Shown here in pieces: positions 1,201-56,264 of a stretch of 64,000 nucleotides of DNA (positions are counted from its first letter, which is position 1; every line of letters begins with the position of its first letter). Where the stretch lies: NCBI GenBank assembly GCA_040767085.1, contig JAXGPF010000014.1, positions 83,434 to 147,433 of the forward strand, written 5' to 3'. The position numbers were made by a program, and so were the translations under genes. Source of the DNA: Kiritimatiellia bacterium (GTDB lineage Bacteria; Verrucomicrobiota; Kiritimatiellia; JAAZAB01). The notes under the pieces were generated by a model, which worked only from the letters and a program-made list of their open reading frames with translations, did no database searches and had not been told where the DNA came from.

Positions 1201-2731
1201 GTTTCCTCACCAGAATTTGTGGGTGATTACCGGTTCGGGCAATTGCCCAAGGGTATGATATAGCGCCATTTCCGCGCCATGAAAAGTTCTGAAGCCATAA
1301 GATCGTTTGGTAACCACTCGAGCTTTATTGTTCAAGCCCTCGGTTGCGCCAGTAAAAACCTCGTTTCTGGCTCTGATCCAGTTCAAAAGCAGCTCCTCGT
1401 GTTTAGCAATGGTTTTAGCCGCCTTAATGATTGGCGCAATGCGGCTACGACAGGCGCGCTTGACCCATGCCTGGAGATAATTACGCGCCCAGGTTGGGCT
1501 GTGATAGCTCCAAAAATGCTGAAAGCTTTCCTTGAACAAATAGGCGCGGCCGGTTTGCAGTCTTGTGCCCAATATCCGATCAAGCATTTCGCGAGCTTTG
1601 CCGCGCACGCGGTTTGCGGCGCAGCAAGGTCCAGCGCATTTTCTTGAGTTTTTGCTTGGCCGCCGGACGCGCTGTCATCGCCGCCATATCCCGGCGCCGG
1701 ACCTCGTCCACGGCGGCATTCAAGGTTTGCACGACATGGAAGCGGTCAATCATGTGGCAACCGTGGCTGAGGCTCGCAGCAATGACTTTCAGATAAGGTC
1801 GCCACATATCGCTACATATATGTCGAATGCCGGCCAGCACGGGTTTTCCCAAAGATTGCAACCCTTTACGCAGCGCGCGGCCCGGCGGGTTTGGCCGACC
1901 CAGAGCAATCGGCGGCATTGCGCATCAATCTGATAGATCAAGGTCAGATAGTTCTTGCTCTTTTTACCGTTGCCTACGTGGAGTTCATCAACACCAATCG
2001 CCGTTATATTGGCCAATTCCCGGTGCGCCAAGCCCCATTCCACCATCCACTCGACCGACCGATAAACCGCCTGCCAACTGACTTTGAAAATCAGCGCCGT
2101 CTCTTTCCAGGACAACCTCCGCGCCCAGTTCCCCAAAAAAAGCATCAGCGCCTTGCTGTAGGGTCGTTTGCCATCGCTCCAAGGCAGCGCTTCCACCACC
2201 ACGCCATGTTCGGGGCAATTTACCCGGCGCGGACTATAATGCAAAAAAGCCGGCACATTCAAAATGGGCACAAACGCCCATATCCGTTCAGGCAGAGTGT
2301 CGTATGTCGCCAGCGGTCGCCCGCAACGCGAGCAGCATGCCGCGCGTTGGCGATGCGGACGAATGCTTATATCCACTTTCCATTGGCCGCGACGATCCAA
2401 AACCATACAAGTTTCCTGATAAATAAAACGTTTCAAAGGTTGCAAACGATTCAAAATTGTTTTAAGTTTCACCTTGGGCTGGTCCTCCTTTTTTTGTGTT
2501 CACCCATTGCATACGCAATGGATTACGGAAAGGCCAGCCTATTTTTTTGCCGCCGCTTTATCTCCGTTCCGCCATCGCGCCAATCAGGAGTTATTAATCA
2601 GGCTGCTGCGGGGCCGCCAAACGCCCAAAGCGGCAGGCTGTTAATAACTCCACCATCTTTGGGCGCCATTGCTTGGAGAACTTCTTAAACTTTAAAACCT
2701 GTTTTTTACCCACAAATTCTGGTTAGGAGCC
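1201..2731 (-). mobile_element. ISL3-family insertion sequence (1531 bp) with frameshifted transposase
   Basis: Terminal IRs GTTTCCTCACCAGAATTTGTGGGT (1201-1224) and reverse complement of 2708-2731 GGCTCCTAACCAGAATTTGTGGGT match 21/24; 8-bp TSD ATCTTTTT at 1193-1200 and 2732-2739. Confidence 0.95.
1207..2472 (-). pseudogene. ISL3 transposase split by two frameshifts (~1878 and ~1611)
   Basis: Three overlapping ORFs (1789..2472, 1580..1918, 1207..1608) carry consecutive ISL3 motifs: CSRC..CPEHG zinc finger, IGVDE, CSDMWRPY, IDRFHVV, TEGLNNKARVVTKRSYGFR. Confidence 0.9.
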
Positions 2732-2739
2732 ATCTTTTT

Positions 2740-5427
2740 TATTCTTTTGTCTTTGCGCGGATGATCGGCTACAACCAGTGGGGAGCAGGCATTAAAGGGC
2801 CGTATCCCCACGGGCGCCGGTGGGGGCGCTTGCCCGGCATGTCCGCGTTGCGCGCCCTGTATCGCCAATGGCGGGGCATCGGCGCGCCCCTGGCGCCGCC
2901 GGTAATCACCGCCAACCATGGCAGCCAGGCTTTCGAAAAGGCCTGCCTGGTCATTAATCCCACGCTGGAGGAACAGGAGATAACTTTTTCGGTGCGGCAC
3001 CTGGAACTGCCGGCGGTGGATTTGTTTTCCGGCCGCCCGCTGGACGCGGCCGGGGATGGCGCGGTTTCCATGCGCCTGCCGTTTTATGCCGGGCGGATCA
3101 TTGTGTCCCGCGCGGACGCGCTGCGGAACGAACTCGCGGAATTGCGCGGGCAATTGGAAGCGGTTTATCAATATCTGCGCGACAACTCAAGCTTGTCCAA
3201 TCCGCAATTCAAGCAAGGGCCTGCTTTTGAAATCCTGGCGGATTTACGCCGGGCCATCGGAGCGTTGCCGGCCGAGCCCCTGGAGATCAAGGCGGAGGAT
3301 TTTAACCGTTTGACCATGCGCCTGGCGGAATTGTCGCCGGCCGATTTTCTGGACGAGCCCGGGGCGCAGCTATGCGCCGCCGGGGACAGCCTGGATGGCG
3401 ATGCCGTCCGCAAATTGCTGGCCGCGCCGGACAGCCGGTTGTCCCCGCCGGAAATATGGGAAAGCGGCGAGGCGCGATATGCCATTTTGCGTTCGGCCGG
3501 CGCGGCCTACAGTTTTGAGCCGCATTTGAATTACGGCGCGGATGCCTTCCATAACTATGGTTCGGCGCCCGTCGGGCATGTCTGCTGTTCCGCCGAACGC
3601 CCGACGGAATGGCTGGTGTATCCGCAGGTATCCGCTCTGCGGTTTCAAGCGAGCATTTCCGCGCCGGACAATAAAACCATCAGCATGACGCAAGGCCGCT
3701 TAAAAAGCATCGAAAAACTTGCCGGTTCCGCCCGGGAACAAAACGTGTTGCTGCGGTATGCCCTGGAACCACCCGCCGCCGGTCCGGTTGAGGAGGAGCA
3801 TCCGGATTTGACCGTCATGGCCGCGCTGCATCAAGGCTCCCCGGTGTTATCGCTGGAAATCGGCCTGGAAAACACAAGCGGGCCCGTCCCCGGCGCCTGG
3901 ATTGAGGTCGCGCACATGACGGGGGTAACTGCGCCGGGCAGCGCGCGGCGCGCGGTGTTCGGCAGAGGGGCGGATGGCGCAACCAATTGGTTTTACCTGC
4001 CGGAACCGGAAAACAACCGCGCCGGGGAATTGGTCATCGGCCGGCCGGACTTGCGTTTTTTGCGCGGCCGCCTGGCCGGCCAGCCTGGCGCAAAGTTGAA
4101 ATTCGACGTGGTGCGTCTGCATGCCCATGATCATTATTTTCTCGATGGACGTTTGCGATTCGCGCGGCTGGCCGCCGGACGCGCGGCGCAATTGTTGAAC
4201 AATATCTACCTGGAGGCGCGGCCGAGTCCGTCAAACAAGGCGTTTATCGGGGAAAACGTGGAACTGAAACTGACGGCGGCCGATGCCGCGGGCGCAAATC
4301 ATGCCGGCGCGGAGTTTGCGCTGCAGGCGGATTTGACCGTGGTCAGCCGCCCGGGCATGGTGCAACCGGTGGCGGCGGAACAAGCGACGCCCGGCGTTTT
4401 TAAGCTCGTGGAGTTGGCCGCAACGGAGGGCGATGTGCTCATGTTGAACGGATCGGCGGTCATCCCAACCCCGGCGGCTGGAACTTTTCATGCCGAAAAG
4501 GCATGGCTTTTACGCATGCATAATCCGGTTATAAGCCGGTTAACCCGTCTGCCGCCGGCCGCGCCGGGCCAATGCCGTTACGAATTGCGGGTTATCAACA
4601 ACAGCGCCAGCCGTGACTTCCAGGGGCTGGCCCGTTTGACGCCGCATAACCAGGCCTGGCCGGTGGCGCCCGCCCAACATGAACTGCACATTGCGCCCGC
4701 GGGCGAATTCATCGGGGAATTCAGCATTACCGGCGGATCCAACGCCATCAACACCCTGGCCAGCGGCCAACTGGAACTGCAGCGGGACGCAAAAGTGCTG
4801 GAGAATCAGCGTTGCGGCATACACTTCTCGCCCACGGCGCGCGTGCCCTTTCTGCGGCAACCGCCCAAGCTGGACGGCAAGCTGCAGGATGCCGAATGGG
4901 CAGCGGCGGTTTTGTTGCCGGGCTTCCGGCGCGCGCGCACGGGCGCGCCGGACCCGGATACGCAGGTCCGGCTGGGTTATGACCAAAAGCATTTATATCT
5001 TGCCTTCCATTGCGGTAATTTTAATAATGGCGGGAATAAGCAGGAAGTTGAACCGGCGGCGCAAAATGTTTATGACGACGCCGCCTTGCGGGACGACAGC
5101 GTGGAAATATATCTGCGGCCGGATTTCCGGAATCCCGCGGCCGCGCCGGAGCGGCTGGGCATCAATTATCAGGGCAATTATAAAACGGAAAGCATCGCGG
5201 AATTTTCCGCCGCGGCCGGCGGCGGCCCGGGATATTGGACGCTGGAAGTCGCCATTCCTTTCGAGTCCCTGGGGCGGAACGCCCCGGCTTCCGGCGATGT
5301 CTGGAGCGGCAATTTCTGCCGCACCTATCATGCGGCGGCCGCGCCGGAGCGTTATGGCGCGGCCTGGTCTTTTTTGAGCGGCGGATACAACCAGCCGGAA
5401 CAGTTCGGCTGGCTGCATTTTGAGTGA
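2740..5427 (+). pseudogene. 3' part of the ISL3-interrupted large carbohydrate-active protein, with C-terminal CBM9-like (DOMON-type) sugar-binding domain
   Basis: Removing the IS and one TSD gives ...HENLF|YSFVFARMIGYN...; C-terminus has PKLDGKLQDAEW, RLGYDQKHLYLAFHC, DDSVEIYL, WTLEVAIPF, WSGNFCR, typical of CBM9-like domains. Confidence 0.85.
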
Positions 5428-48914: not shown

Positions 48915-51900
48915 TTAACCCCGGTCATCCACCGTGATCATTGCGCAATCGTCACGGCGCAGGGCCAGGCGCAGCCGCACACAACCCGGCCGGGCGGACA
49001 TAACTTCGATGGCGCAGTCGCATTGAATGCGGTCCGGTTTAACCCGCGGCAATCGGATGGTGATTTCCGGCTGGATAGCGCCGCCTTCCGCCGGGTGGCT
49101 GTCTTCCGCCACCACGATTCGCGCCAGGCCTTGCGCGTCCCGGAACCCGATCAACTTCCCGGCCGTGGTTGCCGCCTCCGGGGCGCCCGCGTACCGCATG
49201 GCCAATGCCATGGCCCGGTTGGCCAGCCGGCTCAGACTGGCCTTGCCGTAGCTGATGACGGCGTCGCCTGCTTCGCGCCGGATGACCGTCGGCGGGATGG
49301 TCCACAGCGCTGTGCGCCCCCAGCGTGTCCGGTGAATCGCCAAAGCCGGCGCCCGGACGCGCCCGCGCCCGTCCACGCCCTCCAGCACGGCCTGCGCCCC
49401 GCGGCACTGGTAGGCTGCGCGGCACAGTGGATGATCGAACTCTTCCGATGCTCCGGCCAGTTCCCGCCAGGGCGCCTGACGCGCCATGGCGCGCGCAGTC
49501 CGGATGCCGCGGAGCGTCACCGGCTTTTTCCGCGGAACGACGCCGAACAAATCTTCCAGGCCGGGCACTGATTCAAAAGCCACCAGGGCAATGCCCCGGG
49601 CATGCGCCCGACGGATCATGGCGCGGTCGGCATCGCTCAGGCCGAGCAGCGGCGGCAATACGAGGGTATGGACATCCGCTGGTGATAAACGGCCCAGCAT
49701 CTCGAAAGCCGCCAGAAATCCGGCGCATTGCCCGTCCAGGCGCGCCTGTTCGTAGGCGTAGGCGACGCATTCCTCGGCGGTGTTGTAAATGTCGCCGAAA
49801 AACACCGGGCCCTTGCCGTCCTGGTAATAACGGTCAGGGTAGCGTTCCAGGGTGTCGGTATGCGCCAGGCAGGCTTGCCGGCTGTAAACGAATGCGGCGG
49901 TGCGCAATGGTTTTTTGGGGCGCACCCGCCGGATGACCGACCAGGCCGAAAGAAACTCGGCGAAATGGTCCCGATCCCAATGCTTGGGCTGGAACCCATT
50001 GTCATTCCAGAATTCGAATCCCCGGCGGCCAAACCACGCGGCGGCATAGGCATACTCAAAAAAACATTTCCGGAAACTGATGGCGGGCGGCCGGTTCCGG
50101 GCGTTGGGCGGGCTGCCCAGCAATACATGAAAATCGGCGGGAATACCGGTTAACCCATACACTTCCGGATAGAGCCGCAATTCCGGCGCTTCCAGTTTCA
50201 TGGCGGCGAGTTGAAACACATCGCGCTGGAGGGGGTAGCCGCACACCCGGGAATAACTTTCGAACCGCAGCGGACCGTCAAGATAACGCGTCCAGCCGCT
50301 CCGCAGATCGCGGCCCATGTAGTGCGCAAACCAGGCGGACTTGTACACCGACCCGTAAGGCGGATACGGCCCGAACCAGCCCCAGCGTCCCTGGAACCCC
50401 AGAGCTTGCAGCCGGGCGCGCGCGCGCGGCATGTAAACCCGGGCGTACCACCGGTTGAAAAATTTCAGCCAGGATTTCCAATGGTTTTCAACCAGTTCGA
50501 CAAATTGTGCTTTGGTAATCGCCCCGGCGGCGTGGATGTCATCATATTGCAGGCGGCGGCTGCCGCAGGCGGCGAAAGCCGGGCTTTGCAGAAACTGCAA
50601 AAACGCGTCGAAAACACTTGCGCCTGGTTGCCCGCCCGCCGGCCGGCGGTAGGCGGTTGGGTGCCACAAATCCAGCCGGCGCATCAAGGCGCCGGGATAC
50701 AAGATGTCGGCATGGCGGATCAGCCGGGCGTGATTTTCCGGATCGCCATGGGGTTGAGAGAGCCGCAGCCACCATTGCCGGCGGTACAGATGCACCAGGT
50801 CCCAGGTACGGTTTTTCCCCGCAAAGGACAAGCGGAATCCGTTGTGCGAAACGTAATGCCCTTCATCCACCGCGCGCCCCATCCACGGATCGAAGACATC
50901 GGCCGCGGAAACGAAATCGCTGGATTCGTAAAACAACAGTTCGGGCAGGCCGGAAATCAGCGGCGGCGCGGGCGCTCGGGGGTCGCGGGACAGCACTTCA
51001 AAGGCGCGGCGGACTTCCGCCATTACACGTGTGCCCTCGCGCAGCCGGGCGGCGACATGGTAAACTCCCGGCGGCAGACGGCCGGGCGACCATGCCGGTC
51101 CGGTCAACGACGCAGCGCCTAATCCGTGCCGCCACCGCCGCGCCGCGGGATCGGGCGCCGGCTGCAGGGGGCGTGCAACCGCCGGCTGCAGCGGTTGGCG
51201 GAAAACGTCTTCCAGCGTCCATTCCACCCGCAGGTCGCGCGCGCGGCATTCCGGCCGGCGATGCCGCGCCGCGATGTGGAAACGCACCCGTTCGTCTTCC
51301 ATGAAATAATGGTTGGCCCTGGCAAACGCCATGGCCGCGGCTTTCCGCCGCGTGTGCGCCGGGATCATCCGGCATATCATCTTGTCAGGCGGCGAACCAA
51401 TCTCGAGCAGGACATCATTTGCCTTCAAAGGCGCGCCGGAAGCGATGATCCGGCCGCGCGTCGGATCAATCCAGGCTTCAGTCGGCCCGCCTTTCATCCA
51501 GTTGCGTTCCTCGGCTTCGTAATATTCGTAGCCGACAAACACGTTGACCCGGGGCGGCAATGCGGGCAAACGCACAATTCGTTCCAGGGGGCATTCGATA
51601 TCCGACGGCGGCAGCCCGGTGGCCCGGCGATCCCAGTGCTCCTTCAGGCCGACCGATCCGCGGAACAGGTAATGGGTGCCGAGGTCGCCGCCGCCCGGCT
51701 GTTCCAGACGCAGATATGGGTTGATCAGGCATTCGTTCTGCCAGCGCATGCCGCCCGGGGCGCGCCCGCGCAGCAGCGCCGGGTCATCGCGCTTGGCCGG
51801 GCCGCCGGTCAGCCGCGCCGTGATCTGGATGTGGTTGGCGTAAGCCGCCGCCGTCAGTTCGTAAAAAAACGGCGAAACAATTCCGTTATGCTCCACGGGG

Positions 51901-52541
51901 AATTTGATGCGCAGGGGTTTCCATAATCCTGACGGCGCCGGCGCGCGGGATGTTGTCAGGTGGATGTGCCGCAGCCAGAACGGGCCGCGCGCGCCATTTT
52001 CCGTGGGGCGGTCGCGGTCGAACCCGATCTGACCGGCGCCGGGCAGCCGGGGATTCCGGGCCCGAAACCCGGCCACGGGGGAACCATTATGCAACACCCG
52101 GAAAATATCGCCCCGGACTTCCAGCCTGATTTCCGTCCATTCGGCTACGGGATATTGAGCCGGATCGGAGGCCGATGCCAGCACGCGGTCCCCGGCGGGA
52201 TCGCAGACGCCCAAAACCGTCGCACCGCCCGCGCCGGACCATTGCCGTTTGATGCAATATCCCGTTTGCCGCCGGGAATCATACCGGAAAAAGACATAAC
52301 AGCCGGCGGCCGCCGCCCCGGCATCGCCGCGGCATTGCAATGACAGGGTAAAATCCCGCAGAGGCGGCGTCAGGAGCAGGTGCTTGTTGCCCCGGCAGAG
52401 GATGTGATAAGCGCCGTTTTCCACCCGGCCGTGCAGGTGCGTCCGGTCAGTATGCCGTTCCACCAGCAAATCGCAAGGATGTTCGCCCTGCCCATAAAAA
52501 AGAAAGTCATCCGTAAAAGTATACGAGGAATTCGTGGGCAT
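48915..52541 (-). CDS. Large uncharacterised protein, putative glycoside hydrolase (paralog 2 of 3, 1208 aa)
   Basis: Colinear with 7126..10752: FTDDF..GEHP, LTGGP, GGPTE, FDPWMGRAVDE.HYVSHN, WGWFGPYPPYGSVYKSA, LYPEVYG, NTAEE..AYEQARLDGQ. Confidence 0.85.
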   Translation of the reverse strand: MPTNSSYTFTDDFLFYGQGEHPCDLLVERHTDRTHLHGRVENGAYHILCRGNKHLLLTPPLRDFTLSLQCRGDAGAAAAGCYVFFRYDSRRQTGYCIKRQWSGAGGATVLGVCDPAGDRVLASASDPAQYPVAEWTEIRLEVRGDIFRVLHNGSPVAGFRARNPRLPGAGQIGFDRDRPTENGARGPFWLRHIHLTTSRAPAPSGLWKPLRIKFPVEHNGIVSPFFYELTAAAYANHIQITARLTGGPAKRDDPALLRGRAPGGMRWQNECLINPYLRLEQPGGGDLGTHYLFRGSVGLKEHWDRRATGLPPSDIECPLERIVRLPALPPRVNVFVGYEYYEAEERNWMKGGPTEAWIDPTRGRIIASGAPLKANDVLLEIGSPPDKMICRMIPAHTRRKAAAMAFARANHYFMEDERVRFHIAARHRRPECRARDLRVEWTLEDVFRQPLQPAVARPLQPAPDPAARRWRHGLGAASLTGPAWSPGRLPPGVYHVAARLREGTRVMAEVRRAFEVLSRDPRAPAPPLISGLPELLFYESSDFVSAADVFDPWMGRAVDEGHYVSHNGFRLSFAGKNRTWDLVHLYRRQWWLRLSQPHGDPENHARLIRHADILYPGALMRRLDLWHPTAYRRPAGGQPGASVFDAFLQFLQSPAFAACGSRRLQYDDIHAAGAITKAQFVELVENHWKSWLKFFNRWYARVYMPRARARLQALGFQGRWGWFGPYPPYGSVYKSAWFAHYMGRDLRSGWTRYLDGPLRFESYSRVCGYPLQRDVFQLAAMKLEAPELRLYPEVYGLTGIPADFHVLLGSPPNARNRPPAISFRKCFFEYAYAAAWFGRRGFEFWNDNGFQPKHWDRDHFAEFLSAWSVIRRVRPKKPLRTAAFVYSRQACLAHTDTLERYPDRYYQDGKGPVFFGDIYNTAEECVAYAYEQARLDGQCAGFLAAFEMLGRLSPADVHTLVLPPLLGLSDADRAMIRRAHARGIALVAFESVPGLEDLFGVVPRKKPVTLRGIRTARAMARQAPWRELAGASEEFDHPLCRAAYQCRGAQAVLEGVDGRGRVRAPALAIHRTRWGRTALWTIPPTVIRREAGDAVISYGKASLSRLANRAMALAMRYAGAPEAATTAGKLIGFRDAQGLARIVVAEDSHPAEGGAIQPEITIRLPRVKPDRIQCDCAIEVMSARPGCVRLRLALRRDDCAMITVDDRG

Positions 52542-52936
52542 ATGGCTACGGGGTCAGATACCTGAATCCGTGACGGGCTTTGCCCGTCACGCTAATTTTT
52601 CCGGAATTGTGTTTTGCAATCAGCCATCGCCGGATTTTCAATGGCCCATTTCTAAATTCTCCGTCACCAACACATTTTTCTCACGTTTTTGCCAAATTAC
52701 CACATCCTTCGAGTAAGTCAACTGATTATTTTGCCTTTTTGGGCCTGGTTCATTTTCGGGTAACACTTTTCCGGTAAAATCGTCCGGTGTTTCCCGCAAA
52801 ATCACCATTCGTTTATGCGGGTTGTTCAGGCTGTGGACTGCCAAGCTCCGCCGGGAGCGCTGCCGCCATTCCCCCGAACCCCCGCGTTTCTCCAACCTGT
52901 TTTTTTGAAAGACAATTCCCCCAAAAAACTGGCGTA

Positions 52937-53088
52937 AGAATAGCCGCATTGGACGTCCGCTGTCAAGTAAAAAAAACGCGGAAAACCGGGGGGGGGTAAT
53001 TCGTTGATATTCAATCGGTTACGACAAGAAGAAAAATTTAATATTTTTTTAGAAAAATGTTGACGCCGCGGCGTTTTTTTTGTATCTT
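52937..53088. promoter_or_regulatory. Divergent sigma70-like promoters inside the IS left end
   Basis: Leftward: TTGACA (52966-52961), 18 bp, TATTCT (52942-52937). Rightward: TTGACG (53060-53065), 17 bp, TATCTT (53083-53088). AT-rich spacer between them. Confidence 0.6.
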
Positions 53089-53128
53089 GTGTCTTGTTGT
53101 AATAATCTAATCAGAAAGGAGTTGCCCC

Positions 53129-53491
53129 ATGTCCGCTACACGCATCGCCGAATCGAAACCAAAATCCCGCGCCATGGCGCTGGCATCCTGCCAGGGCCTT
53201 ATCAAAGCCTCGCTTTGCAAAACCCGTGTCCAGTGCGGCAAACCCACATGCCGCTGCGCTAAAAATTCTCGGTTCCGCCATACCGCTTTGACTTTCACCT
53301 ACAAGCACAAAGGCCGGAGCATGGGGCTGCACGTGCCGAAAAGCATGGAAGCGGAAGCCCGCCGGGCGGCGGAGGATTATCGGAAGTTGAAAAAACTTGT
53401 TCAGAGGATTTCAGATTCCAATCTGAAAAAGTTCCGTCGCGGAATTGCCGTGAAAACTAAATCGCGCCAACGGCGCAAATCACACGCTTGA
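53129..53491 (+). CDS. Small basic transposase-associated protein (DUF6788-like)
   Basis: RBS AAAGGAG; ASL....QCGKPTCRCA.....H motif followed by YKHKGRS..HVP. Confidence 0.8.
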   Translation: MSATRIAESKPKSRAMALASCQGLIKASLCKTRVQCGKPTCRCAKNSRFRHTALTFTYKHKGRSMGLHVPKSMEAEARRAAEDYRKLKKLVQRISDSNLKKFRRGIAVKTKSRQRRKSHA

Positions 53492-53497
53492 GGAGAC

Positions 53498-54991
53498 ATG
53501 CCCATGTTGACTGCGTCAAGAGATTGTCCGTCTTCCGCAAAAAATCTGCCGCCGCGCGCGCGCCAGGCATTGGCTGTCGCGGCGTTGTCGCGGAAAACAC
53601 CGGTCTCACGGCTGGCCGCCGCCAGCGGTGTCAGCCGGAAGTTTGTGTATCGGCAATCGGCAAAAGCGAACAATATTTTAGACCAAGCGTTCGACGACAA
53701 ATTCCCCGACGAGGAGGTCTTGTTTTATCTGCCGGTGACAAAGGCATGGCTCCGTAAAGCCGTTCTCGGTCTGGTTTTAATCTGTCACAGCTCATTCCGG
53801 GGCGTGGTGGAGTTCATGCGCGACCTGCTGGACTTCGATATTTCCATTGGCTCCGTGCATAACACGCTTATGGATGCCGTTGGCAAAGCTAAAACCGTTA
53901 ACGCCAACGAGCGTTTGGAGTCTGTCAGAGTCGGCGCCCATGATGAAATATTCCAGGCGCGGCAGCCGGTATTGGTCGGCGCGGACGCTGATTCCACATA
54001 TTGCTATCTTTTGAGTCTGGAAAACTCGCGCGATGGCGACACATGGGCATTGCGGCTGATGGAGCTCGGCGACAAAGGCCTTCAGCCGGATTACACTGTT
54101 GCCGACGGCGGCTTGGGACTCCGAGCCGGGCAAACGCTGGCATGGCCGGATATTCCATGCCGGGGAGATGTGTTTCACGCACTCTTGGATATGGGGCGAC
54201 TGACGGTATATCTGGAGAATCGCGCATTCGGCGCAATGTCGGCTCTCGAAAAAACGGAGGCAAAAATGACCAAAGCAAAAAGAAAAGGCAATGGCAACAA
54301 ATACTCGAAACGTCTCGCCGTGGCCGGTCAGGCCGAAGCCGCGGCTATCAATCTGGCCGATGATATAAGCACCTTGGCCGGATGGCTGCGCAACGATATT
54401 CTTTCTCTGGCGGGCGGCAACGTTGACACCCGCCGGCAACTGTTGGATTTCGTGATTGAATCGTTGCGGCAAAGAGAACATCTGCGTCCGCACAGAATCC
54501 AGCCGGTGCGTGTCATGTTGGAAAACCAACGCGACCTGCTCCTGGCCTTTGCGCAGGAAATAGACGATAGGCTCATTGCATCCGCCAACGAACTCAACTT
54601 GGATCCATCCGATATGCGCCGGCTCTTTAATCAGCGCATCAAGGAACGCGCGTCCGACCAGGACCACATTGCTGATGATATTCCGTGTGAACAATCAGAT
54701 GAACAATCAGGCGCCGCGGAGCAAAGCGTCCGGAAAATCATCGCCGGCGTTGTCCGCGCCAGCTCCATTATTGAGAACATCAACAGCCGTCTCCGGCGCT
54801 ACTTTTTCCTGCGCCGCCAGATCGGAAACGGCTATCTGGACCTACTCCGTTTCTTCTTCAACCATCGGCGATTCCTGCGCAGTGAACATCCCGAGCGCGT
54901 TGATAAAAGTCCCGCCGAATTACTATCCGGCAAAACTCATCCGCACTGGCTGGAATTGCTGGGGTTTGAAATGTTCAAGCGCGCGGCTTGA
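53498..54991 (+). CDS. Putative DDE transposase of an unclassified family
   Basis: N-terminal HTH (VSRLAAASGVSRKFVY); acidic motifs AHDEIF, TVADGGLGL, GDVFH, RASSIIENINSRLR; FFNHRRF..SPAELLSG; RBS GAGGAG. Confidence 0.8.
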   Translation: MPMLTASRDCPSSAKNLPPRARQALAVAALSRKTPVSRLAAASGVSRKFVYRQSAKANNILDQAFDDKFPDEEVLFYLPVTKAWLRKAVLGLVLICHSSFRGVVEFMRDLLDFDISIGSVHNTLMDAVGKAKTVNANERLESVRVGAHDEIFQARQPVLVGADADSTYCYLLSLENSRDGDTWALRLMELGDKGLQPDYTVADGGLGLRAGQTLAWPDIPCRGDVFHALLDMGRLTVYLENRAFGAMSALEKTEAKMTKAKRKGNGNKYSKRLAVAGQAEAAAINLADDISTLAGWLRNDILSLAGGNVDTRRQLLDFVIESLRQREHLRPHRIQPVRVMLENQRDLLLAFAQEIDDRLIASANELNLDPSDMRRLFNQRIKERASDQDHIADDIPCEQSDEQSGAAEQSVRKIIAGVVRASSIIENINSRLRRYFFLRRQIGNGYLDLLRFFFNHRRFLRSEHPERVDKSPAELLSGKTHPHWLELLGFEMFKRAA

Positions 54992-55048
54992 ACGACCATA
55001 ATCCCGCCCAAGTCCGATCAAATTCTTGCGCATTCATGCGTGACAGGC

Positions 55049-55233
55049 GTATACTGCCTTCTGTTACCCAAAAAGGCATGTTTTTGAACCATGCCAAAAA
55101 ACGGCATAAAACCGCTTTGCATATTTCCGGCATCCCCCTGAACGACCTGCCGCGGGAGGCGGTCATCATCAAACTGGCGTTTGACGATCGGCCGGCGGTG
55201 GCGGCGGAATATCTTTTCCATGGAGGCGTGTGA
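55049..55233 (+). pseudogene. Orphan 3' gene fragment abutting the IS right end
   Basis: Open frame ILPSVTQK..ALHISGIPLNDLPREAVIIKLAFDD..HGGV* whose TGA overlaps the next ATG (TGATG); no 5' part in the window. Confidence 0.5.
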
Positions 55234-56264
55234 TGAATCATCGCGAACGATTTCTGGCAACAGTGGAACGGCGGCCGGTGGACCGCCCCGCCGCCTGGCT
55301 GGGGTTGCCGGTGCCGGATGCCCTGCCGGCCTTGCTGCGATATTTCAAAGTCAAGGATATCGTCGAACTCAAGGCGGCGCTGGATGACGATGTTTTCCCG
55401 GTGGAAGTCCCTTACCGCCACCCGCCGGCCAACCACATCGCCTGCGCCTTCGATTTCGCCAAGGCGGCGCCCGGCGCCGGCACGACCGCGGAGCGCACCC
55501 TGACCGCCCGCGGCTGCTTCGCCGACTCCGCCGATCCGGCGGACATCCGCAATTTCGACTGGCCCGATCCGGAAAAACACATTGACTCCGACGCCTGCCG
55601 GCGCGCCCTGGACGAGGTCCCCGCTGGCTACGCCACGCTGGGCATGCTCTGGTCCGCGCATTTCCAGGACGCCTGCGCGGCCTTCGGCATGGAGGAGGCC
55701 TTCGTCAAGATGCTGACCGCGCCGGCGGTGTACCGGGCGGTGATTGACCGCATCACGGATTTTTACCTCGCGGCCAACGAAATATTTTACCGGGCCGCCG
55801 CGGACCGCCTGGACGCCGTGCTGATCGGCAACGATTTTGGCACGCAACGCGGGCTGATGGTGGCGCCGGACCAGTTGCGCGAGTTCGTCTTCCCCGGCAC
55901 GGGCAAGCTAGTGGCGCAGGCCAAAAGTTACGGTTTGAAAGTCATCCACCATTCCTGCGGCGCGATGCGCCCGGTGATTCCCGACCTGATCCGGCTGGGC
56001 GTGGACGCCATCCATCCCATGCAGGCGCTGGCGGCGGACATGCAGCCGGAAAAGCTCGCGCGCGAATTCGGCGGCCAGGTGGCCTTCTGCGGCGGCGTGG
56101 ACGTCCAGGAACTGCTGGTGCATGCCCAGCCGGCGGCCGTCAAGGCGGCAGTGCGCAAGCTGCGGAAACTGTTCCCCACCGGGCTGGTGTTCTCGCCCAG
56201 CCATGAGGCTATTTTGCCCGACGTCCGGCCGGCCAACCTGGCCGCCATGTTCGCCGCGCTTTAG
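55233..56264 (+). CDS. Uroporphyrinogen decarboxylase / MtaA-CmuA family protein
   Basis: MNHRERFLATVERRPVDRP, FDWPDP, GNDFGTQRGL, HHSCGA, GVDAIHPMQ, FCGGVDVQ, FSPSH. Confidence 0.92.
   Translation: MNHRERFLATVERRPVDRPAAWLGLPVPDALPALLRYFKVKDIVELKAALDDDVFPVEVPYRHPPANHIACAFDFAKAAPGAGTTAERTLTARGCFADSADPADIRNFDWPDPEKHIDSDACRRALDEVPAGYATLGMLWSAHFQDACAAFGMEEAFVKMLTAPAVYRAVIDRITDFYLAANEIFYRAAADRLDAVLIGNDFGTQRGLMVAPDQLREFVFPGTGKLVAQAKSYGLKVIHHSCGAMRPVIPDLIRLGVDAIHPMQALAADMQPEKLAREFGGQVAFCGGVDVQELLVHAQPAAVKAAVRKLRKLFPTGLVFSPSHEAILPDVRPANLAAMFAAL

Follow-up and report, generated by a model that had tools for sequence, protein, structure and literature searches.

Insertion sequences (IS) with outward-directed promoters include ISEcp1, ISAba1 and, by way of hybrid promoters, IS481 and IS256. 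In IS10, the transcripts from pIN and pOUT share sequence, so that RNA-OUT can pair with the 5′ end of the transposase mRNA; this antisense control of IS10/Tn10 by pOUT and RNA-OUT was reportedly described by Simons and Kleckner in 1983. The IS110/IS1111 elements encode a DEDD (RuvC-like) recombinase with a Tnp domain, have neither terminal inverted repeats nor a target duplication of fixed length, and encode in their non-coding end a structured RNA, the loops of which are complementary to the target and the donor. Elements of the IS200/IS605 type encode the HUH protein Y1 TnpA and/or the RuvC protein TnpB, have sub-terminal hairpins, produce no duplication, and express an RNA overlapping the 3′ end of tnpB. 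These bridge or seek RNAs and omega RNAs, respectively, were reportedly described by Durrant (2024), Hiraizumi (2024), Siddiquee (2024), Karvelis (2021), and Altae-Tran (2021). Outward promoters have been described for many IS, and reviews that bear on the subject are PMC9330008, PMC6161684 and PMC12095673. Here we consider a stretch of 64,000 nucleotides from a Kiritimatiellia bacterium (GCA_040767085.1, contig JAXGPF010000014.1; the window), in which an earlier note, made from the sequence alone, had flagged positions 52569-52966 as a candidate structured RNA of ~350 nt in the left end of an IS with a DUF6788 gene and a transposase gene. We found that the flagged segment spans parts of two mobile elements, and that it contains a conserved promoter sequence, Pout, which points out of the left end of the DUF6788/transposase element and probably yields a transcript reading into the adjoining DNA.

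When window positions 52542-55229 were compared by BLAST with the window's own genome (28 contigs, 4.08 Mb, 95% complete), the region split into two independent repeats. One of these (52742-55095) is a complete IS of 2354 bp on the + strand, which we refer to as IS-A, and which consists of a left end, the DUF6788 gene, the transposase gene, and a right end. Its five genomic copies are the one in the window, L002, L003 and L004, which are 99.9-100% identical to it, and L005, which is 92% identical. The other four copies share exact boundaries, starting with the left terminal inverted repeat GGCCTGGTTCA (52742-52752, + strand) and ending with the right terminal inverted repeat TGAACCATGCC (55085-55095, + strand), and all four are flanked by 8-bp direct repeats (AAAAATCA, GCAAGCAG, CAAAGTTT, and CGTTTATC). 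The second repeat (52560-52743) has five further copies, of which L006, L007 and L008 are 100% identical, L009 is 88% identical, and L010 is 79% identical. Past 52743 the three identical copies continue identically with sequence that is absent from the window. In L008, an open reading frame (ORF) of 441 aa (1730-3055, minus strand) matches the NF033539 model for IS1380 transposases (E 4e-94; the score of 315.6 bits exceeds the cut-off of 180). Since the repeat continues into this 441-aa IS1380 ORF in L006, L007 and L008, the 182 bp at 52560-52741 (minus strand; IS-B) can, on sequence grounds, be assigned to the IS1380 family as a truncated end from the side downstream of the transposase gene. 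The DNA of this stump is identical to the end of full copies passing the NF033539 equivalog, whereas in the window only the 182 bp are left and the transposase gene is gone. The seam between both elements (52741/52742) is present in one of the five IS-A copies and in one of the six copies of the IS1380-end repeat. It is close to certain that the flagged segment is a composite of two mobile elements and not one unit.

Of the five IS-A copies, only the one in the window has no target duplication; its left flank reads cctttttg and its right flank aaaaaacg. In G022, a genome of the same genus, 97% homology to the window begins exactly at position 55096, and the G022 DNA to the left of that point had no match to window positions 49000-55095; the right boundary of IS-A is thus a synteny breakpoint. 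Because the duplication is missing from the window copy and synteny with the congener breaks at 55096, the seam arose by rearrangement. IS-B would once have sat 19 nt upstream of a host gene for a 1208-aa protein, the 2354-bp IS-A would have come to lie within IS-B, and a later IS-A-mediated rearrangement would have deleted the remainder of that IS-B copy together with the target duplication. We infer either recombination of an IS-A inside IS-B with a copy at the present right-hand site, or an intramolecular transposition that deleted the DNA in between. The reciprocal product was not found among the assembled copies, where one could be missed given a genome completeness of 95%.

These boundaries bear directly on the earlier note. 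The long structured RNA is an artefact of misplaced element boundaries, because its paired ends, its hairpin, and the ORF at 52638-52949 all straddle the seam or lie beyond it; the 3′ half of the proposed ~350-nt RNA falls in an unrelated IS1380 remnant that adjoins this one copy only. The perfect hairpin that was supposed to end the transcript (CGTGACGGGC-TTT-GCCCGTCACG, 52569-52591, 10 bp with a loop of 3 nt) was indeed recovered in our hairpin scan, but it is a sub-terminal hairpin of IS-B and does not belong to the element carrying the promoter. All five other copies of the IS-B repeat have this hairpin, the diverged copies L009 and L010 in altered form. It is followed by a T-run on the + strand only, so that it looks like a terminator for transcription entering IS-B. 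The complementarity noticed between 52912-52919 and 52603-52610 can be extended to 19 nt at 79%, and the two arms do pair in the minimum-energy fold of 52569-52930 (minus strand, z -3.6). With one arm in IS-A and the other in IS-B, the pairing is nevertheless incidental, because this neighborhood exists in one of the five IS-A copies and in none of the related elements examined. We estimate that chance alone would give about one complement of 8 nt within ~400 nt (400^2/2/4^8, roughly 1.2). An ORF of 103 aa (52638-52949, minus strand) does exist in the sequence; it crosses the seam unique to the window copy, has its C-terminal third in IS-B, matches no Pfam or NCBIfam model, and is not a gene. 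Finally, the non-coding DNA ahead of the first gene amounts to 387 bp (52742-53128) instead of ~550 bp, as the left end of IS-A lies at 52742.

What stood up to this comparison was the leftward promoter motif. Pout is a sigma-70-type promoter sequence at 52937-52966 on the minus strand, with a -35 element TTGACA, a spacer of 18 nt, a -10 element TATTCT, and a T-tract just upstream of the -35. It fits 10 of 12 consensus positions and has a predicted start near 52930. From there to the ATG of the 1208-aa gene at 52541, the scan of 52400-55300 gave no further promoter-like site on this strand. To assess its conservation we used an alignment of 11 left ends from elements with transposases that are at least 70% identical to that of the window (the window, L022, L117, L102, L103, L105, L121, L024, L023, L149, and L106). 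A search with left-end DNA in 401 genomes of the phylum yielded one further close copy (G042, 92%) and a 40-nt match at a contig end (G410), which is too few for statistics of the R-scape type. The G042 left end (L183) was added later and brings the number to 12; it equals L117 over the stretch read. With the spacer taken as 17 nt for L024, L023, L149 and L106, the TTGA of the -35 and the first and last T of the -10 are kept in 12 of 12 left ends and the A at the second -10 position in 11, at a spacing of 17-18 nt. The -35 reads TTGACA in five cases, TTGACG in five, TTGACT in one and TTGATG in one, and the -10 reads TATTCT in four, TAGTTT in three, TACTCT in two, and TATTTT, TGTTTT and TACTTT in one each. 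A T-tract precedes the -35 in 10 of the 12. The sequence of the spacer and the downstream DNA, on the other hand, largely differ between the left ends, and conserved hexamers around a varying spacer are the pattern that would be expected of a working sigma-70 promoter and give the leftward promoter its strongest support.

In total, five blocks of the left end are conserved: the terminal ~45 nt (in the window, from the inverted repeat to ~52786); a short CCCGCGTTT; the minus-strand module of T-tract, TTGAC[AGT], 17-18 nt, and TAnnnT; a tract of 7-11 G followed by TAAnTCrTTGATnnTCAA; and the rightward operon promoter with its ribosome-binding site. The operon promoter is TTGACG-17-TATCTT at 53060-53088 on the + strand, found in the promoter scan and conserved in the alignment; it overlaps a weak terminator-like site that consists of a GC hairpin and a T8 run (53062-53083, + strand). 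The fourth block lies midway between the divergent promoters and in the window consists of a G9 tract, TAATTCG, and the palindrome TTGATATTCAA (52988-53014). The G-rich tract and the TTGAT..(T)CAA were kept in all 11 aligned left ends, and this block could be a regulator site or a slippage-prone tract. The length of the G tract was seen to vary from G6 in L005 over G9 in the window to G8-G11 in relatives. We also noticed an imperfect inverted repeat of 19 nt (74%) that brackets Pout (CCCCCGAACCCCCGCGTTT at 52871-52889 and AAACGCGGAAAACCGGGGG at 52974-52992), the core of which (CCGCGTTT/AAACGCGG) recurs by eye in several relatives. The middle of the true left end is not among the conserved blocks. 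L024 lacks positions 52790-52880, L102 differs there, and in L023, L149 and L106 other DNA takes their place. In the window these positions contain the internal stem CCCGCA..TGCGGG (52793-52821) on which the structured-RNA proposal had drawn, and this stem, while present in the sequence, is unused in the minimum-energy fold of the 189 nt that belong to IS-A.

The transcript predicted to start at Pout would cover these 189 nt, from ~52930 to the tip of IS-A (87-328 nt in the relatives), and no terminator-like site was found on the minus strand in 52742-52930. At its 5′ end a stem-loop is predicted (U6-GGGGG-AAUUGU-CUUUC-A7, 52901-52928, minus strand) with -8.6 kcal/mol and a z of -1.9. In minimum-energy folds of the first 40 nt, 7 of 10 left ends form a hairpin at this position, while the register is shifted in L117, and L023 and L106 do not form it. 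The z-scores of this hairpin against shuffles range from -3.1 to +0.6 over the 10 left ends. In the alignment of these 10 sequences no base pair changes on both sides, and shuffled and slid controls score as high or higher. The minus strand, which is rich in G and U, folds better than the plus strand in 10 of 10 left ends, and this could be explained by G-U pairing alone. Because covariation was absent and the stem is built of low-complexity runs that pair in several registers, we do not claim the 5′ stem-loop as a conserved structure. The 189 nt of IS-A as a whole fold with a z of -2.3 (4 of 200 shuffles fold as well), and a search of all 4227 Rfam families on 52300-55400 gave no match at E <= 1. 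As a coding sequence the leftward transcript was rejected on reading by eye: the short ATG frame (17 codons in the window) has two non-synonymous changes in L022, and the upstream GTG start of L022 and L102 is a GGG in the window.

RNA libraries gave a further view of this region. In one search, three RNA runs contained 5-8% of the sampled words of 52400-55200. We examined contigs from four runs (X1, X2, X3, and X8), which reveal neither the strand nor the ends of an RNA. Of IS-A, these contigs contain 52742-52906 only: X3 has a 166-nt contig (record 5) on 52741-52906, and X8 has a 320-nt contig (record 7) with 162 nt on 52742-52903 and the other 158 nt from a different flank. Depth over 52964-55200 was 0 in all four runs. 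Other contigs join the IS-B end to intact IS-B (X1) or to other flanks (X3 and X8), and the 5′ part of the 1208-aa gene is present in contigs of X1 (52400-52505) and X2 (52412-52560), up to the repeat boundary at 52560. X3 and X8 have no cover of 52400-52493; absence of cover in contigs is not evidence. Cover of only 165 nt, all downstream of Pout, fits an abundant leftward read-out RNA better than carry-over of DNA.

Taken together, we consider it probable that the left end of IS-A contains a conserved outward promoter that gives a read-out transcript. The left end would be a divergent, back-to-back promoter region, in which the rightward promoter would serve the DUF6788-transposase operon and Pout would start a leftward transcript near 52930, which would meet no terminator over the 189 nt to the tip and would continue into the adjoining DNA; in the window, this would be the IS1380 stump and then the 1208-aa gene. 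That Pout fires, on which strand and from where the RNA starts, and that the neighboring gene is driven by it are what we infer from these combined data. An outward promoter possibly driving the 1208-aa gene had been given as the alternative in the earlier note, and the comparative data and the RNA contigs favor this alternative, short of proof. Several points weigh against it. The promoter-like sites in 52400-55300 are not above shuffles (3 versus 2.2 +/- 1.4). The related left ends are not independent, so that the 12 sequences represent ~8 lineages and their conservation does not amount to a formal test. Ten more distant left ends of DUF6788-bearing elements are, by eye, without the Pout module, with L122 as a possible exception (TTGACC-17-TACGCT). 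The RNA signal comes from two runs of one study, in contigs that have neither strand nor start site, that could derive from carried-over DNA, and that end 24-27 nt short of the predicted start. In X1 and X2 the left end of IS-A has no cover, so there is no sign in these runs that Pout feeds the 1208-aa gene, and read-out could instead come from an intact IS-B, of which the transposase gene has the same orientation.

The conserved hexamers could also be protein-binding sites and not a promoter. The motif would then be silent, its blocks (TTGAC, TAnnnT, the G-tract, and TTGATATTCAA) being DNA sites for the transposase, the DUF6788 protein or a host protein, and the contigs would represent DNA carry-over or read-through from flanking genes. 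The lack of enrichment over shuffles, the conserved palindrome and G-tract nearby, the strandless contigs from libraries that can contain DNA, and the flank/left-end join in X8 record 7, which is also expected from read-in, all agree with such a silent motif. It nonetheless appears quite unlikely to us, as the positions kept are the three most constrained ones of a -10 together with TTGA at a spacing of 17-18 nt, carried-over DNA of an element with several copies would be expected to span the full 2354 bp and not 165 bp (the depth of 0 over 52964-55200 in four of four runs being at odds with this), and no stop is predicted near 52906 for transcripts that read in on the + strand. A different question is why an active Pout would be kept. 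Its outward transcription could collide with polymerases reading in from the flank, with an RNA antisense to the read-in transcript, and so keep the operon off together with the hairpin and T8 run at 53062-53083, in which case activation of a neighbor would be a by-product. Such an insulating function would agree with the back-to-back arrangement in which Pout lies upstream of the operon promoter. It would also agree with the conservation of Pout in lineages of the element that differ in host and insertion site, as this suggests selection on the element. Insulation gains a little from two further observations, the + strand terminator-like site overlapping the operon promoter and the ribosome-binding-site hairpins in single-gene relatives (see below), which show by eye that the family guards against read-in. 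The Pout RNA is, however, not complementary to the operon's own mRNA, so that the effect would be limited to read-in transcripts, and the more distant DUF6788-bearing relatives do without the module. We hold insulation to be unlikely as the explanation for Pout, although selection may keep the promoter for either insulation or neighbor activation.

The left end might also produce a functional RNA as a partner of the transposase or of the DUF6788 protein, in a geometry resembling that of omega RNAs, with the 5′ stem-loop and GGAGAAACGCGGG as a scaffold and a 3′ part running through the inverted repeat into the flank. This would account for a conserved promoter with a stem-loop behind it, for which 7 of 10 left ends have a prediction at this position and 7 keep the loop RAUUGU, for a second conserved block after that stem-loop, and for an RNA-library signal that is restricted to this segment and crosses the element's end; the folding of the IS-A-only 189 nt (z -2.3) is in its favor as well. 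Against it stand the lack of covariation in a stem-loop for which controls do equally well or better and z-scores extend to +0.6, and the 60-250 nt between stem-loop and inverted repeat, which are unconserved in sequence and length and nearly absent in L024. The transposase is of an ordinary DDE type, and the element has inverted repeats and target duplications as usual for such enzymes; Rfam gave no match, and 107 of 132 relatives have no room for such an RNA (<=260 nt from tip to transposase start). Four identical copies lie in four unrelated 8-bp targets, which also argues against target choice by an RNA. A functional left-end RNA thus seems very unlikely. An even more specific version, which we likewise regard as very unlikely, is that a sub-clade acquired the DUF6788 zinc-ribbon gene along with a promoter-driven left-end RNA (RAUUGU loop, GGAGAAACGCGGG) as a cofactor of the DDE transposase, where the RNA would, for example, mark occupied sites or tether the transpososome to its own end. 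If true, the Mutator-like group would with it have its first DDE insertion sequence that is assisted by an RNA.

The genes of IS-A place the element in a large and poorly annotated group. The DUF6788 gene (53129-53491, + strand) encodes a basic protein of 120 aa with a CxxC..CxC motif, which exceeds the gathering score of PF20586 (E 1.7e-12, 47.8 bits against a cut-off of 27.2). The transposase gene (53498-54991, + strand) encodes 497 aa and is of the DDE type with an RNase-H fold and a long all-helical insertion, as judged from invariant residues, an AlphaFold2 (AF2) model and Foldseek. Apart from a sub-threshold HTH_29 match (E 0.055), the protein matched no Pfam model at E <= 0.1, and it matched no NCBIfam model at E <= 0.01. 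Among 8000 scored candidates at least 6194 are relatives at E <= 1e-3, and the 120 relatives listed have no precomputed Pfam domain and are named only as "hypothetical protein". A profile search gave 4225 clusters at 50% identity with E <= 1e-3, of which 879 reach E <= 1e-30. Thirteen RefSeq plasmid records were matched, 12 of them annotated as "hypothetical protein" (two beside another gene) and one without an annotated feature at that place. The family occurs in Planctomycetota, Verrucomicrobiota/Kiritimatiellia, Cyanobacteria, Paraburkholderia, Actinomycetota, Acidobacteriota and others. A full-text literature search for "DUF6788" returned no papers, and no literature search was aimed at the transposase family.

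In an alignment of 62 relatives, E150, D203, D224, H227 and E426 are invariant and D149 is present in at least 90%; D149, D203 and E426 are likely the catalytic residues, as predicted from this conservation. Weak matches to DDE_Tnp_ISL3 were found in 19 of the 62 (best E 2.9e-7), to Transposase_mut in eight, and to MULE in seven, and the same three families appeared on minorities of members among protein-atlas neighbors. The AF2 model built on this alignment (pLDDT 91.9, pTM 0.83) has an RNase-H-like core of beta1-3/alpha/beta4/alpha/beta5 (145-223), an insertion of ~190 helical residues, and a helix bearing E426. Its top Foldseek match in the PDB is the transposase of the IS256-family element ISCth4 (E 5.4e-5, TM 0.32-0.52), followed by Hermes, while the transposase profile against PDB sequences gave only a chance match to an enolase (E 0.68). 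Based on the residues, the weak family matches and the modeled fold, and in line with the 8-bp duplications, IS-A is best described as a DDE element of the Mutator-like (IS256/ISL3) kind that falls outside current family models, and its transposase group may be an unnamed IS family.

The ends of the family were read from 160 related loci, 80 of 310 confirmed on genome contigs and 80 of 445 on metagenome contigs. The sharply kept end motif GGCNTGGTTCA/TGAACCANGCC was found with <=1 mismatch upstream of the transposase gene in 132 of the 160 loci and downstream of it in 139; 116 loci have it at both ends. Of the 132 relatives with a recognizable left end, 107 have the tip <=260 nt from the transposase start; these are single-gene elements of ~1.75 kb. 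A minority of relatives has an extra gene; this small ORF passes the DUF6788 cut-off in 20 of 20 loci, where the non-coding left ends measure 199-527 nt. In the single-gene relatives L027, L115, L153, L168, L132, L055 and L042 we noticed by eye hairpins, such as CCGACTCC...GGAGTCGGTATG and CTGTTTCC...GGAAACAGACATG, of which the 3′ arm includes the ribosome-binding site and start codon. A hairpin sequestering the ribosome-binding site is a classic device that blocks translation of read-in transcripts.

Some further observations concern the copies of IS-A. L005 (on contig C22 of the window's own genome, G000) is a mosaic pseudogene relative to window positions 52742-55095: identity is 97-100% at the ends and in the promoter region and ~96% in the transposase gene, which has stops and frameshifts, but drops to 72% in the DUF6788 gene. 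The two distinct forms of the DUF6788 protein (CGKPTCRCAKN... and NVCGNPNCRCKDPKKPKRHGPYYQLSF...) are also swapped among transposases that are 79-84% identical to that of the window, and the gene appears to be an exchangeable module. The insertion sites of L002, L003, L004 and L005, as well as window positions 55096-55120, are A+T-rich islands in a G+C-rich genome, and at several sites CATAAAA was seen by eye near the duplication. This probably reflects an intergenic, A+T-rich preference rather than a specific target.

On the other side of the seam, the 1208-aa host gene (48915-52541, minus strand; found by ORF and domain search) encodes a protein with a domain resembling 3-keto-disaccharide hydrolases. 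The stump of IS-B ends 19 nt upstream of its ATG, and the IS-B transposase gene has the same orientation as the host gene. In L008 (1-1581), the ORF of a flanking gene likewise enters the element's end on the same strand. By analogy, this layout of IS-B and host gene recalls promoter donation of the ISEcp1 type.

For the interpretation of this locus, the comparison removes a false lead, in that an RNA with paired ends came from taking two mobile elements as one. The feature that remains is a conserved outward promoter in the left end of an IS, which is a familiar way for mobile DNA to rewire neighboring genes. Here, Pout points at a glycan-hydrolase-like gene of 1208 aa that had its own upstream region displaced by the IS1380 insertion. 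A transposase profile together with the end motif would improve the annotation of many genomes and metagenome-assembled genomes.

How does IS-A relate to the known systems? Like the IS110/IS1111 and IS200/IS605 elements it has a long non-coding end with a promoter, and as with an omega RNA its transcript would run from the element into the flank. Unlike those elements, IS-A encodes a DDE enzyme of the RNase-H fold that is closest to ISCth4. In contrast to the DEDD recombinases of IS110/IS1111, the model best matches ISCth4 and Hermes and the invariant residues fit a D, D, E triad; the ends are 11-bp inverted repeats, duplications flank four of four copies in unrelated targets, and neither an Rfam match nor covariation was found for the left end. 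With respect to IS200/IS605, IS-A encodes neither of the two protein types and makes duplications, and the only perfect hairpin belongs to the IS1380 stump. Because enzyme class, ends and duplications all disagree, IS-A is not an RNA element of the IS110 or IS200/IS605 type. It shares with IS10 a promoter that points outward and a short transcript that starts with a (predicted) stem-loop. The two promoters of IS-A are back to back, though, with the -35 hexamers 94 bp apart and transcripts that share no sequence. Since Pout and the operon promoter are divergent and do not overlap, this is not antisense control by an RNA-OUT of the IS10 type.

Among the DDE families, ISfinder gives a target duplication of 8 bp for ISL3 and of 8-9 bp for IS256, and the 8-bp duplications at four of four other IS-A copies agree with both. 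IS-A also resembles these Mutator-like families in ends that start with GG, in the motifs D..D(G)..[C]xxD-x-F-H..E-N-x-N, in the weak matches among the 62 relatives, and in ISCth4 as the best structural match. It differs in that the window transposase matches neither Pfam model at E <= 0.1, and neither PF01610 nor an NCBIfam ISL3 model recognizes it as a member of ISL3, and in the extra DUF6788 gene of its sub-clade. The closest parallel is with IS that carry outward promoters. As in these, IS-A has a complete -35/-10 motif near one end that points outward with no terminator before the tip, and an RNA-library contig crossing that end indicates a transcript able to reach a neighbor. Compared with them, Pout is set back by 189 nt from the tip of the left end, precedes the operon and faces away from it, and is a predicted promoter. 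An outward promoter is in itself a known kind of feature in IS; in IS-A it is found on an IS family that lacks annotation and is as yet unclassified, in which it has been conserved over ~8 lineages.

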